Assembly: GCA_946414595.1 (NCBI GenBank)
Contig: CAMKPE010000010.1
Span: forward strand, 134 to 64,133
Direction of reading: 5' to 3'
From: an uncultured Clostridium sp.
Lineage (GTDB): Bacteria; Bacillota_I; Bacilli_A; RF39; UBA660
Length of the DNA stretch: 64,000 nt
This document shows positions 9,704 to 21,493 of this stretch, one piece after another. The translations under genes and the position numbers were made by a program. Within the stretch, counting starts at the first letter, position 1; each line of letters starts with the position of its first letter. Under the pieces are notes generated by a model. That model had not been told where the DNA came from, ran no database searches, and saw nothing but the letters and a program-made list of their open reading frames with translations.

Positions 9704-10070
9704 TCTTTTTATATTCTCTAATTATCCAAATCATTAATAAGGAAACTATATAATCTTTTTCAGTATCTGTTAATTCTCTTCCTTTAGGTATGTTATGCCA
9801 CTTTTCTAAACAAGATCTACAACAGCAACCACAAGCATGCATAGCAATGAAAACAGGATGTCCTTTCATAGGTGTTTGTTTACCATCATTTACCGGATTA
9901 CTAGGTACTAGTTTTTCATTAACAAAATCTATTGCATGTGACTTAACTATATCTAAACCTTTTTCATCTATATAAGAAATCATATACTTTCTAAGATGAA
10001 AACTACTTCTAAACTTAGATTTTGATAAAGATTCTAATTTCTTATTAATACTTATAACTTTATCATTCAT
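9696..10070 (-). CDS. DUF4186-like small protein with a conserved Cys cluster HACGCCCRSCLEKWHNIP.
   Basis: About 124 aa. KFRSSFHL...NDGKQTPMKGHPVFIAMHACGCCCRSCLEKWH matches my recollection of the DUF4186 family. Confidence 0.5.
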   Translation of the reverse strand: MNDKVISINKKLESLSKSKFRSSFHLRKYMISYIDEKGLDIVKSHAIDFVNEKLVPSNPVNDGKQTPMKGHPVFIAMHACGCCCRSCLEKWHNIPKGRELTDTEKDYIVSLLMIWIIREYKKSA

Positions 10071-11056
10071 TAGAACTTATAATCTAATTTAACTGCTGTT
10101 ACAATGTATAACGCATTATCCCAGTGGTGAGAACAAGTTTGCAATACAAGTATTTCTGATTCAGCATTTATACTTATATTTCTTGATTGAACAGGACTAT
10201 TAGTAATTGCATTAAAGTGATCAATAAAGTCTTGTCCAGTTAAATCAACTTTCATATGTTCACCATTAGTCTCTGATATTTCTTTAATTGATTTTATCTC
10301 ATATAAAGCTTTTCCACCTTCATATTGGAATATTATATATGGATGTGAATCAAAGAATTCTTTATCAAGAAACTTCTCAAGTTTTAAGAATGCTACTTTT
10401 ATATTTGTATCTCTTGTATTATGTCCATATATATTAATTTGTTTACTAGTAGGTTTAACTCTATAATCTAAAAATTCGGTTCCTCTTATATCATATTCTT
10501 TATCAACTGAATGTGTTAAGTAATAAGAATTATCATTTGATTGTGCTACTAATACGTTAAATAATTCAGGTATTTCAAGTCTTCCAACTATTTGATTATT
10601 GTTATGTTTCTTTCTTTCTGCTGCTATATCTATATCTTCAGCAAGTTTAAACTTAAAGCCATTAACAGTAGCATCTTCAGTTTCAGTACTTAACTCAGAT
10701 GGTGTTGGTTTATAAATGTCTGGTTCCGGTGGTTCTGGTTTAGGGCTAAAGTAATCTACTGCAAATACAATTGCTGATGCAACTAATACAAGCGAAAATA
10801 TTATATACATAATTATTTTAGTCTTGTTAGTTTTTTTCTTTTTCTTGTTAATAGGAGGCATATATCCCCCACCCATATTTGGATTAGGATTATAACCATT
10901 CATCCCTGGATTATAATTATTATTCATTCCCATATTATTACCACTAGTATTTAAAGGGAATGTATTATGACAATAAGTACAATTAGCCTGTTGACTATAA
11001 ATGTCAGTAACTACTTTTGCACCACATTGAGGACATACTACTTCCATATATCTCAT
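10070..11056 (-). CDS. Class B sortase-like transpeptidase fused to an N-terminal cytoplasmic zinc ribbon, an Asn/Gly/Pro-rich linker, a poly-Lys stretch and one TM helix.
   Basis: SrtB-like blocks YYLTHSVDKEYDIRGTEFLDYR, INIYGHNTRD (catalytic His) and ILVLQTCSHH (TLxTC Cys). N-terminus CPQCG...CTYCHN zinc ribbon. No Arg after the TLxTC block. Start chosen at MRYMEVV, which has an AGGAG RBS. Confidence 0.65.
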   Translation of the reverse strand: MRYMEVVCPQCGAKVVTDIYSQQANCTYCHNTFPLNTSGNNMGMNNNYNPGMNGYNPNPNMGGGYMPPINKKKKKTNKTKIIMYIIFSLVLVASAIVFAVDYFSPKPEPPEPDIYKPTPSELSTETEDATVNGFKFKLAEDIDIAAERKKHNNNQIVGRLEIPELFNVLVAQSNDNSYYLTHSVDKEYDIRGTEFLDYRVKPTSKQINIYGHNTRDTNIKVAFLKLEKFLDKEFFDSHPYIIFQYEGGKALYEIKSIKEISETNGEHMKVDLTGQDFIDHFNAITNSPVQSRNISINAESEILVLQTCSHHWDNALYIVTAVKLDYKF

Positions 11057-11103
11057 ATAATCATCTCCTATTATATATTTTAATTGTATCATAATTTATA
11101 AAA

Positions 11104-11132
11104 AGAAAAAATCCTTATTTCTAAGGATTTTA
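11104..11132. terminator. Hairpin terminator aaaaatcctta-tttc-taaggattttt. Sequence identical to the one at 14568..14597.
   Basis: Perfect inverted repeat flanked by A-run and T-run. Lies just downstream of the stop of giant gene 11168..14485. Confidence 0.55.
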
Positions 11133-11167
11133 CTTTTATTTACTATTATTAAACTAGATTAGATATT

Positions 11168-20159: not shown

Positions 20160-20200
20160 AAACTTTTAATTAAAAAAACATACAATAATCTTCATTATGT
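20160..20200 (-). terminator. Imperfect hairpin plus T-run downstream of the 84-aa gene on the minus strand.
   Basis: aaacatacataatg...cattatgtatgttt inverted repeat followed by TTTTTTT on the minus strand. Confidence 0.4.
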
Positions 20201-20205
20201 ATGTT

Positions 20206-20460
20206 TCATTTTCTATTATTTTCCCATATTTTTCTAACTAGTTTTAATGATAATGTTGATAAAGTGAATCCTATTACTGGAACTAAAGATGTTAAAAATA
20301 CGTTATCGTATTCTTTTATTAGTAATTGATAGATAACTACAATTATGTATGTTAAAAGCATTATGCAGATTTTTCTTGTCCAACTAGTTTCCCAAGTCTT
20401 ATCAAGTTCTACTCTTTTGTTTCTATTTTCAATGTCTTTAACTCTCTTTTCTAGTTCCAT
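20206..20460 (-). CDS. Small membrane protein, 84 aa. Charged N-terminal helix followed by two TM helices.
   Basis: MELEKRVKDIENRNKRVELDK then hydrophobic ICIMLLTYIIVVIYQLL and LVPVIGFTLSTLSLKLV. Confidence 0.4.
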   Translation of the reverse strand: MELEKRVKDIENRNKRVELDKTWETSWTRKICIMLLTYIIVVIYQLLIKEYDNVFLTSLVPVIGFTLSTLSLKLVRKIWENNRK

Positions 20461-20524
20461 AACTACCTCACATTATAATTATACTATATTTATCAGTTTT
20501 ATGGAATAAAAAAAAGAACTATTA

Positions 20525-21493
20525 TTAGTTCTTTTTGTCTTCAGGTTTTTTAGCTTTAGTTAATTCTTTGTTTCCTTTTTCTTTCTTTGGTTTTTCTTCT
20601 AACCATTTTGTTAAGTTACCTTCTTCTCTTGTAAATGTTTCCCATGTTTTATCTGCTCTTTTTTCTATTTCTTCTGAAGAAACATTTAAGATTTTTAATA
20701 ATTTAACTGCTTTTTCATTTAACGCTGGTTCAACACCTGTATTATGTAATTCATTTAATTTTTTAGCTTTAATTCCTCTTGCTTTTAATAAAGTATCGAT
20801 TGTTAAGTATAATTCGTTTGAACGTTTATATGCTTTACCATTATCCATTCCTAGATATCCTGATATATCTATTGGAAGTGGTTTTCTTTTTTCTTTTAAA
20901 CAAGTATCTACACATTCTTCAATATTTGCTACATAACCCTTTAAGTATGTATAAACATCCATTCCTTGATGTCCTACTGTTGATCCTACTATTTTAGTTC
21001 TATAAGCATTTAACCAATAATCATGTACTACTTCTGATAAGAATTTAATATATCCAAGAAGTGTTACATAATCACTATCATGTGAATCGCTTAATCTTTT
21101 TTCGTTTACAATCATATCAAATGAATGTCCATGATTAGTATCATGTAAATTTACTCTTTTTGCTAAATCCATTAATTGTTTTAAAGATAAGTCTTGAAAT
21201 GGTGATGGTAATATTACTCCATTTTCTGGTGATATAGAATCAAATAATGAATTATAAATATCTGATAATTGATTTATATTCATATTCTTTTGCCATTCAT
21301 CAACATGGCTAATACCGATTGTATTAAAGTCAAAATCTAAAAATACAAATATATCTTTCTTAGGTGGAGAAAGTACAATACCATCTCCAGTAAAATAAAA
21401 GGAATCCCAATCAACACCATATTCATGACATACATCTCTAAATTCTTGAGAAGTCATCATCTTTATTATGTCTTTTTCTTCTTTAACTACCAT
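20525..21493 (-). CDS. Hypothetical cytoplasmic protein, 322 aa, Lys-rich C-terminus. Could be an immunity or accessory protein of the island.
   Basis: Long ORF. No recognised motifs. Confidence 0.4.
   Translation of the reverse strand: MVVKEEKDIIKMMTSQEFRDVCHEYGVDWDSFYFTGDGIVLSPPKKDIFVFLDFDFNTIGISHVDEWQKNMNINQLSDIYNSLFDSISPENGVILPSPFQDLSLKQLMDLAKRVNLHDTNHGHSFDMIVNEKRLSDSHDSDYVTLLGYIKFLSEVVHDYWLNAYRTKIVGSTVGHQGMDVYTYLKGYVANIEECVDTCLKEKRKPLPIDISGYLGMDNGKAYKRSNELYLTIDTLLKARGIKAKKLNELHNTGVEPALNEKAVKLLKILNVSSEEIEKRADKTWETFTREEGNLTKWLEEKPKKEKGNKELTKAKKPEDKKN

Follow-up and report, generated by a model that had tools for sequence, protein, structure and literature searches.

How could a giant bacterial protein that has no signal peptide become the substrate of a sortase? 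The question is raised by a group of genes on a contig from an uncultured Clostridium sp. (GenBank assembly GCA_946414595.1, contig CAMKPE010000010.1), of which a 64-kb stretch, called the window here, was analyzed as a whole. Open reading frames (ORFs) were read on window coordinates; other loci are labelled L001 and so on, and database proteins P0001 and so on. The group, called the module here, consists of geneA, two genes for small WXG100-like proteins (WXG-a and WXG-b), two tandem genes for giant proteins (giant 1 and giant 2), which we regard as the cargo, and a gene for a class B-type sortase. An earlier note on this DNA had taken it for an accessory island beside a tRNA gene and likened it to the toxin loci of type VII secretion systems (T7SS).

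Sortase substrates carry a Sec signal peptide by definition, and published screens drop candidates without one (PMC4371152). In the literature that we searched, no paper couples WXG100 proteins or T7SS substrates with a sortase. To our knowledge, the T7SS substrates described so far are either released proteins or toxins that are passed to other cells. We tentatively propose that the giants leave the cell along a type VII-like route and are subsequently fixed to its surface by the sortase, a reading to which we give close to, and still short of, an even chance.

Sorting-signal-like element of the giant proteins

Giant 1 consists of a variable N-terminal region, a conserved core, a linker rich in E, T and P, a sorting-signal-like element and an acidic tail, in that order; such a linker precedes the motif in the giants. 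The element of giant 1 is made of G-P-H-T-G-L-D (residues 1121-1127), a 14-residue spacer and a glycine-zipper transmembrane segment (TM; GLGALAGLAVGAAGLGLTGLV), and is followed by the acidic tail up to residue 1214. Giant 2 has the same G-P-H-T-G-L-D, a spacer and the TM LGALAGLAAGAAGLGLTGLV, and its tail ends in ...SMFF. The PHTG-bearing peptide GGGPHTGLDAMY is a candidate sortase substrate. A motif of the form xP[HRNK]TG[LI][DN] was found in most of 38 non-redundant members of the family, with APATG, GPGTG or TPPTG in three, and the truncated P0123 was the only representative without the signal. P1122, T1124, G1125 and the glycines of the TM are near-invariant in one alignment (A3) and invariant in another (A10), and the P, T and G of xPxTG stay invariant down to about 25% identity. 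The glycine-zipper segment, GLGALAGLAAGAAGLGLTGL, is near-invariant in the giants. The spacer between motif and TM measured 14-23 amino acids (aa) in the 19 members where it could be measured, and the tails are 22-57 aa long with a net charge of -6 to -21. The pentapeptide of the giants fits [SP]PxTG, the motif for which C. difficile SrtB is specific (PMC4155245, PMC4371152). A search for other carriers of the sorting signal returned only 4 fragments, its candidates being dominated by low-complexity sequence.

The tails of the giants end in NP[QTK]FF-COOH, PQMF or PMFSLNHP[IV]E (window positions 11168-11190 and 14601-14700; P0128, P0129, P0133, P0136, P0142 and P0154). These tail-end motifs lie past the point where the sortase would cut, and they may serve for recognition in the cytoplasm.

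Class B-type sortase downstream of the giant genes

The sortase begins with an N-terminal CxxC...CxxC zinc ribbon and continues with a linker rich in N, G and P, a KKKKK stretch with a TM, and a sortase domain that is predicted to be extracellular. The identification of the gene as class B sortase-like is borne out by TIGR03064 (SrtB, E 9e-24) and by the C. difficile SrtB structures 4ux7, 5gyj and 6kyd, which were the best matches (E ~2e-18). Although its scores stay below the curated cut-offs, the sequence is clearly homologous to class B. Ahead of the sortase domain stand KKKKKTNKTK and then a hydrophobic segment of ~21 residues, from which the positive-inside rule predicts a catalytic domain outside the cell. 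Since the sortase domain is predicted to be extracellular, the PxTG motif and the bulk of the giant should also be outside the cell for the pairing to make sense.

In an alignment of 20 homologues (340-aa numbering), His224 in YGH(224)N and Cys320 in LQTC(320)SHH are invariant. His322 beside the Cys is invariant as well, His323 is conserved in 90%, and GHN[TS]RD is found after the catalytic His. The catalytic residues of C. difficile SrtB are C226, H133 and R234 (PMC4371152). No conserved basic residue follows the Cys among the 20 homologues; sequence candidates for a substitute of the Arg are His322, Arg227 and Arg304. The invariant His, Cys and new His suggest, at the level of the alignment, an active site under selection, and this sortase may work differently or not at all.

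The zinc ribbon at the N terminus, on the cytoplasmic side, is carried by some of the sortase members. A zinc ribbon is also found at the N terminus of a clostripain-family (C11) peptidase (29475-31682, minus strand), where it is double, and of the protein at 58788-59921 (plus strand). It may be a recurrent architecture of the organism rather than a module-specific one.

Sortase and sorting-signal-like element co-vary across loci. The sortase gene lies downstream of the PxTG cargo in every locus that reaches that far, either right after the single or last giant gene or after the second of two tandem cassettes. In L023, L024 and L025, whose cargos have neither PxTG nor TM, there was no sortase within the 10-kb flanks.

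Family and domains of the giant proteins

The two giants are tandem paralogs, as had been claimed, with 48% identity over ~1040 residues. By region, identity is 72-74% in two core blocks, 85% in the C-terminal block with PHTG and TM, and 28-38% in the N-terminal third. Their coding DNA is 70-89% identical, and on this measure the duplication is old. In the family as a whole, the conserved part is the C-terminal half, and the N-terminal region is fast-evolving. The family is rare: with a profile of both paralogs, HMMER found 65 cluster representatives at E values up to 1e-3 in 1.84 billion proteins. Lengths across loci range from 770 to 1435 aa.

No Pfam or NCBIfam family covers the giants. Pfam recognized neither a known toxin domain nor LXG (PF04740) in 19 of them, in agreement with the claim that they have no N-terminal LXG domain. 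A Sec signal peptide was absent from all 38 non-redundant members, in which the maximum Kyte-Doolittle value of a 12-residue window within the first 40 residues was at most 1.3.

An AlphaFold 2 (AF2) model of residues 380-1030 of giant 1 (pLDDT 78, pTM 0.74) predicted a helical hairpin with helices at 647-674 and 677-729, in which W671-K-G673 closes helix 1 (means of pLDDT over 10-residue blocks, 78-96). Two more long helices (765-786 and 813-878) and a small beta domain (939-1009) were modelled. The family motif of the hairpin is W-x-G-S-A...GKFEVTMGNI...L-P-A-C. The beta domain has the motif DDAHGY-YAVTG-FDPLTGTI-IACFD-G-KIG-D-TIWDQREIVPI and is conserved more strongly than any other globular part of the family; a fold search with it gave no specific match.

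The hairpin is homologous to the N-terminal domains of two other large proteins, P0170 in L023 (34%, E 6e-13) and P0183 in L024 (32%, E 7e-8), by BLASTP, and the profile of the giants matched the N-terminal 100-180 residues of P0170 (1177 aa), P0174, P0180 and P0183 (3014 aa) in HMMER. By sequence comparison, the homology of the hairpin to these other cargo domains is clear, whereas its likeness to WXG100 itself is weak.

Helper genes upstream of the giants

The product of geneA (237-515 aa across loci) has a helical N-terminal region of ~95 aa in an alignment of 10 orthologues. This is followed by a conserved IEIPxDFxANN...GKxDGxSVNEGE block and then by degenerate YD-SS...LGNI-GNQT repeats. 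The protein had been called LXG-like; neither PF04740 nor any other Pfam or NCBIfam family matched it or 9 orthologues, and the label was dropped. Only in the lineage of the window does geneA end in a Gly-rich TM and an acidic tail, a duplicate of the C terminus of the giants without PxTG (seen in the alignment for the window, at 18917-19100, and for L001; the 364-aa orthologue of L009 was not inspected). In other lineages geneA is soluble. A TM and tail without PxTG suggest that this part has a role of its own, for example membrane retention or a cytoplasmic targeting signal.

WXG-a passed the curated cut-offs of both PF06013 (37.0 bits, cut-off 27.3) and TIGR03930 (48.8, cut-off 44.85), which confirms it as an EsxA-like WXG100 protein. 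It has W44-E-G46 and, in the orthologue alignment, a C terminus ending in ...NYxE. For WXG-b, the earlier claim of a second WXG100-like protein stood in part. The protein itself is below the cut-off, with 19.8 bits for PF06013 and 27.0 bits for the second profile of the pair. It does, however, have a WxG motif (W48-T-G50), and 8 of 9 orthologues match PF06013 at E below 0.01 (best E 8.6e-6). WXG-b also matches ESAT6_2 (E 3.6e-7), and among its orthologues there were weak matches to LXG in 3/9 (best E 0.0035) and YwqH-like matches in 3/9. Its conserved C terminus, ...DVNS, has V108 and S110 invariant. The W and G of WxG are invariant in the alignments of both proteins, whose lengths across loci are ~105 aa (WXG-a) and ~110 aa (WXG-b). 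Profile-profile comparisons among the shallow alignments all gave weak matches, that of WXG-a with WXG-b included (E 0.02); at these depths hhalign is too weak to settle the WXG100 likeness of the hairpin or of geneA. DUF3130 and DUF3958, which the earlier note had listed for a Pfam check, matched no protein of the locus.

The GC content at third codon positions (GC3) of WXG-a (0.32) and WXG-b (0.26) is above that of every other gene measured (0.08-0.19); a codon bias tied to high expression may be the reason.

Homologous helper triads in front of other cargos

Homologues of all three helpers were found in L024 (geneA, 36%, E 5e-15; WXG-a, 37%, E 5e-20; WXG-b, 40%, E 1e-26). Such helper triads precede huge proteins with an N-terminal domain homologous to an internal domain in the giants. 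L024 has a further triad, more divergent, which is followed by a 477-aa protein with a sub-threshold match to an anthrax-lethal-factor-like (ATLF) domain (25.4 bits, cut-off 27.4). These loci belong to a wider, undescribed system of helper triad plus WxG-domain cargo, which has the layout of LXG effectors and lies outside Pfam LXG. The homologous triads back the resemblance to T7SSb LXG/Lap loci that had been seen in the WXG100 pair directly upstream of a giant, and the description of the system as uncharacterized is supported.

The stretches with triads and the polymorphic giants behind them lie at 4803-7874 and 8653-19045 in L024 and at 8578-23534 in L023, with sizes of 477, 1177, 3014 and >3400 aa. 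A 1024-aa ORF after the WXG-b gene in L042, which has two Walker-A-like motifs, was considered as an EssC and rejected; it matched no Pfam family and is not FtsK/SpoIIIE.

Layout of the locus, gene starts and intergenic elements

The gene set that the earlier note had listed (geneA, the WXG pair, two giants and the sortase) is all there, every module ORF being on the minus strand at the positions it had given (Table 1); two starts need correction. The longest ORF of giant 2 has 1105 aa (11168-14485) and starts from a GTG at 14485. The matching database proteins have 1103 aa for giant 2 (P0001) and 328 aa for the sortase (P0002). An AGGAGG ribosome-binding site precedes the ATG of giant 2 at 14479, and the AGGAG before codon 13 of the sortase was deduced from the reading frame rather than from printed bases. 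From the lengths of the database proteins and the ribosome-binding site, translation of giant 2 most likely begins at 14479 and that of the sortase at 11056. For giant 1, the ribosome-binding site AAAGGGGGA, located 8 nt upstream, backs the start codon.

Table 1. Features of the locus in window coordinates
Feature	Positions	Strand	Remark
tRNA-Leu(CAA)	21585-21670	minus	Ancestral landmark upstream of the module
322-aa ORF	20525-21493	minus	Between tRNA-Leu and module; not a module member
84-aa ORF	20206-20460	minus	Between tRNA-Leu and module; not a module member
geneA, 372 aa	18917-20035	minus	First gene of the module
WXG-a, 112 aa	18561-18899	minus	WXG100-family helper
WXG-b, 110 aa	18263-18595	minus	Second WXG100-superfamily helper; 35-nt overlap with WXG-a
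Giant 1, 1214 aa	14601-18245	minus	Cargo
Giant 1, internal WxG hairpin, residues 647-729	16059-16307	minus	AF2 model and family motif
Giant 1, small beta domain, residues 939-1009	15219-15431	minus	Conservation and AF2 model
Giant 1, sorting-signal-like element	14760-14885	minus	Motif and TM conservation
49-nt intergenic element, copy 1	14547-14595	minus	After giant 1; from sequence
Giant 2, 1103 aa	11168-14479	minus	Tandem paralog of giant 1
Giant 2, sorting-signal-like element	11273-11401	minus	Motif and TM
49-nt intergenic element, copy 2	11083-11131	minus	Upstream of the sortase gene; from sequence
Class B-type sortase, 328 aa	10070-11056	minus	340-aa ORF at 10070-11092; start at M13
DUF4186 gene	9696-10070	minus	Syntenic neighbor; 1-nt overlap with the sortase stop

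Each giant gene is followed by a hairpin with a T-run (AAATCCTTAgaaaTAAGGATTT in the hairpin after giant 1) and then by a -10-like box, TGATACAAT. On this ground giant 2 and the sortase gene would each have a promoter of their own, and the separate transcription of giant 2 that had been claimed is plausible. The two 49-nt elements are 96% identical, compared with only 70-89% for the flanking coding DNA of the giants, a sequence pattern that points to purifying selection or gene conversion. Only the giant gene and its 3' element are duplicated in the window. In a consensus scan for promoters and terminators, promoter matches were fewer than in shuffled sequences, and AT-rich hairpins visible by eye were missed. 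One of the hairpins missed (AACATACA...TGTATGTT with a T-run, 20172-20205, minus strand) lies directly past the 84-aa ORF and looks like a terminator that parts this ORF from the geneA operon.

Genomic context and conservation of the module

The order geneA, WXG-a, WXG-b, giant(s), sortase was found in ~40 loci, including L001-L015 and many short metagenome contigs. An alignment-based scan of contigs recovered 8 loci in metagenome-assembled genomes (MAGs), and single-sequence patterns recovered none. The carriers are MAGs from the gut of ruminants, rabbits and humans, with the labels 'Bacilli bacterium', 'uncultured Erysipelotrichaceae' and 'uncultured Clostridium sp.' Assemblies with the module include JAFXTH01 (RGIG6726), CANRDN01, CABUQZ01 (MGYG-HGUT-04303), CACXGX01 (RUG11250), CAMNJQ01, JAFUTR01 (RGIG4816), CADBDE01 (RUG13868) and an 828-kb scaffold (WILK20-1_SAMEA7016618 scaffold_3). 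Searches by tblastn with giant 1, WXG-a and WXG-b against plasmids and with giant 1 against phages gave no match, and so no annotated cultured relative. Across these loci, geneA, WXG-a and WXG-b stood directly upstream of every giant.

Three contexts of the module were seen. In relatives of the window whose giants are 30-50% identical, the cassette sits between the same FAD-enzyme genes and DUF4186/apt/CYTH/AAA genes, and six of them (L001, L002, L006, L010, L013 and L014) have the same tRNA-Leu(CAA) upstream. In the second context (L018-L020), Lactamase_B and F420-ligase genes lie downstream, and a YkuD L,D-transpeptidase gene is beside the sortase in L019 and L020. In the third (L021), the module (4859-10753) begins ~150 bp after a tRNA-Arg(TCT) (4635-4711) and is beside FemAB genes. 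The FemAB and YkuD neighbors are cell-wall genes. Whole four-gene cassettes occur in tandem in L017, L019 and L048; in the last two they precede a single sortase gene, and the contig of L017 ends before any sortase position.

Several neighboring genes do not belong to the module. The gene for DUF4186, a Cys-rich protein (CGCCCRSC), overlaps the sortase stop in L001 as it does here, lies apart from it in distant relatives, and was rejected as a module member on the ground that it is not beside the module in the other two contexts. The ClpX-like AAA ATPase gene (7050-8528) was rejected likewise, as a syntenic neighbor that is missing in the other contexts. The 322-aa and 84-aa ORFs are lineage-specific filler: they are present in the closest relatives only (L001 and L009), and others have a sulfatase gene or nothing in their place. 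The window also encodes a D-Ala-D-Ala carboxypeptidase and SpoVAD, from which we infer a walled spore-former.

The idea that the locus is a horizontally acquired accessory island at tRNA-Leu has some features on its side. The tRNA is adjacent, the two lineage-specific ORFs lie beside it, the L021 cassette too follows a tRNA, and the total GC content of geneA and the giants is 0.35-0.37, compared with ~0.27. This rise comes from codon positions 1 and 2 and thus from a composition rich in Thr, Gly, Ala, Pro and Glu. The GC3 of the giants (0.144-0.148), or of geneA and the giants together (0.144-0.155), is at the value of host genes such as ScpA/B, SufB/S and apt (0.08-0.15). Furthermore, no integrase is present in the window, the tRNA 3' end occurs there only once, the paralog duplication is old, and the synteny described above places the module at the same tRNA in many relatives, so that comparative genomics of the supposed island boundary makes the tRNA an ancestral landmark. 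The locus is a conserved chromosomal module of uncultured, low-GC, spore-forming Bacilli and not a mobile island, and a horizontal origin of this kind is highly improbable.

Elsewhere in the window, 49167-50639 (plus strand) encodes a VirD4-like conjugative coupling protein of the CD1115 family (E 3.8e-61, below the cut-off), in one of the few plus-strand stretches with positive GC skew. An integrative conjugative element may have left it behind.

Discussion

In the pathway that we tentatively propose, geneA, WXG-a and WXG-b would bind the WxG hairpin of the cargo and form a composite helical export signal, like the Lap/WXG partners of LXG and of 'reverse' T7SS substrates. A giant of ~1000 aa without a signal peptide needs a Sec-independent route, and the WXG100 helpers point to a type VII-like one; the complex would leave the cell through an EssC-dependent, type VII-like machine whose genes lie in another part of the genome. 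The C-terminal TM would then hold the cargo in the membrane with the acidic tail in the cytoplasm, the sortase would cut PxTG between Thr and Gly and join the cargo to peptidoglycan, and the fast-evolving N-terminal region would remain displayed on the cell surface.

A number of results weigh against this proposal. No EssC, EsaA, EssB or YukD gene is present in the 64-kb window, as had been noted for the first three, and the largest other ORF in it encodes a 735-aa clostripain-family peptidase. In the flanks of ~55 loci, many of them short, no multi-P-loop ORF of >800 aa lies beside any module, although whole genomes could not be searched. The carriers are all uncultured MAGs. In the tripartite-signal test of the giants the hydrophobic segment was present and the short Lys/Arg-rich tail absent, and the long spacer between motif and TM together with the long acidic tail breaks two of the three classical sorting-signal rules (stated in PMC4371152). 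The sortase scored 84 bits with TIGR03064 (cut-off 153.75) and 25.0 bits with PF04203 (cut-off 26.6), and at Cys+8, where it has Leu328, almost every one of the 20 homologues carries L, F or Y, and none a basic residue. For the hairpin, hhalign against WXG-a gave a weak match (E 0.0025, probability 12%), and a profile search of the PDB returned S. aureus EsxA at E 0.037 amid coiled-coil noise. PF06013 matched 1 of 19 giants, and fold searches with giant 1 found generic helical bundles only.

The lack of a signal peptide would also fit giants that stay inside the cell as tail-anchored or cytoplasmic scaffolds with the tail outside, next to cytoplasmic WXG partners and an altered or inactive sortase. 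The acidic tail fits YidC-type tail insertion, no EssC was found in the window or the sampled loci, and the sortase is below the family cut-offs and without the canonical Arg. However, the motif lies on the N-terminal side of the TM, and its P, T and G do not vary even among members with about 25% identity. In three unrelated contexts PxTG cargos are followed by the sortase gene, which is not there when the cargo has no PxTG. The invariant His and Cys with the new His322 suggest a selected active site, and linkers rich in E, T and P are typical of wall-spanning stalks. We therefore regard an intracellular role as unlikely, though worth keeping in mind. An alternative that keeps surface anchoring lets the giants be exported by an EssC-independent route or without any T7SS. 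This would account for the absence of T7SS core genes from the window and the ~55 loci and for a self-contained module whose composition is the same in three contexts, and the near-invariant TM and conserved tail ends (NPQFF, PMFSLNHP) suggest a specific membrane or cytoplasmic partner. Against it, flanks of 10 kb say little about the absence of EssC, because LXG-type cassettes commonly lie at a distance from the genes of the secretion core. No protein of the module resembles a translocase or an ATPase, and a survey of 2024 has a WXG100 protein paired with an EssC-type ATPase in each of the T7SS subtypes described (PMC11217815); an EssC-independent export is, in our judgment, rather unlikely. 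The boldest form of the idea, in which the helper triad by itself exports the giant without a canonical EssC and an Arg-less sortase with Cys, His and a new His anchors it covalently to the wall, so that the display pathway would be self-contained and a new way of secreting and anchoring proteins in Bacillota, seems improbable to us.

An ordinary LXG-type antibacterial toxin cassette with Lap helpers and immunity genes is suggested by the order helper-helper-cargo and by the related triads in front of polymorphic proteins, one of them ATLF-like at a sub-threshold score. The locus, however, has no Pfam LXG, DUF3130 or DUF3958, and the C terminus of the giants is conserved where a toxin would have a variable domain; known toxin domains were absent from 19 members. 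No small immunity-like gene follows the giants, each being followed by a terminator and then by a giant or sortase gene, and the TM and sortase signal would retain the cargo rather than release it. A toxin cassette is accordingly quite unlikely. Type VII-like export followed by sortase anchoring thus remains the reading that we prefer, at the tentative level given above.

If this reading is true, the WXG100-helper and sortase pathways are linked through a PxTG cargo without a signal peptide, and predictions of sortase substrates systematically miss a class of proteins. The carriers are abundant Bacilli of gut and rumen, in which a fast-evolving giant surface protein is plausible in adhesion or in phage or host interaction. 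The Arg-less sortase subfamily, which keeps Cys and His and has gained an invariant His, offers a natural test of the role of Arg in catalysis.

Comparison with known systems

The T7SSb LXG/Lap cassettes, including S. aureus TslA/TslM, share with the module the WXG100-superfamily genes right upstream of a large cargo, as well as a cargo that has a helical hairpin with a W/L-x-G turn and no Sec signal peptide. The hairpin of giant 1 is internal (647-729) and not N-terminal as in LXG toxins. TslA is nevertheless a known T7 substrate with its targeting domain away from the N terminus (PMC10730906), and the cargo domain of the giants likewise lies in mid-protein. The module differs from such cassettes in having three helpers, among them the family-less geneA of 237-515 aa and none of DUF3130/DUF3958 type, in having no recognizable toxin in its variable part and no immunity gene, and in a cargo that ends in a sortase-type signal and TM, with a sortase in the module and no linked EssC.

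The WXG100 proteins ESAT-6 and EsxA resemble WXG-a, which is above the cut-offs, and WXG-b, which is sub-threshold with a WxG motif; both are ~110 aa long. Unlike them, the two helpers are not beside EssC/EccC and form a fixed pair together with geneA and a giant cargo, and WXG-b has its own ...DVNS end.

T7SS substrates of the TspA/TelE type have C-terminal membrane-active or glycine-zipper regions. The giants resemble them in a glycine-zipper-like C-terminal segment on a signal-peptide-less protein with WXG partners. In contrast, the segment of the giants has PxTG before it and an acidic tail after it and is paired with a sortase, which suggests anchoring rather than depolarization, and there is no immunity gene.

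The pairing of C. difficile SrtB with [SP]PxTG shares with the module an xLQTC motif, a catalytic His and Cys, an N-terminal membrane anchor, a fitting xP[HR]TG motif and a substrate gene immediately upstream, an adjacency that can be likened to dedicated sortase/single-target pairs such as SrtB_LPKTxSAVK. In the subfamily described here, however, the Arg (R234) is absent and His-His follows the Cys, and the giants differ from C. difficile SrtB substrates in having no signal peptide, a long spacer, a glycine-zipper TM and a long acidic tail instead of a short Lys/Arg tail. The locus fails the defining tests both of T7SSb LXG/Lap cassettes and of dedicated SrtB-substrate pairs, while combining the working principles of the two.

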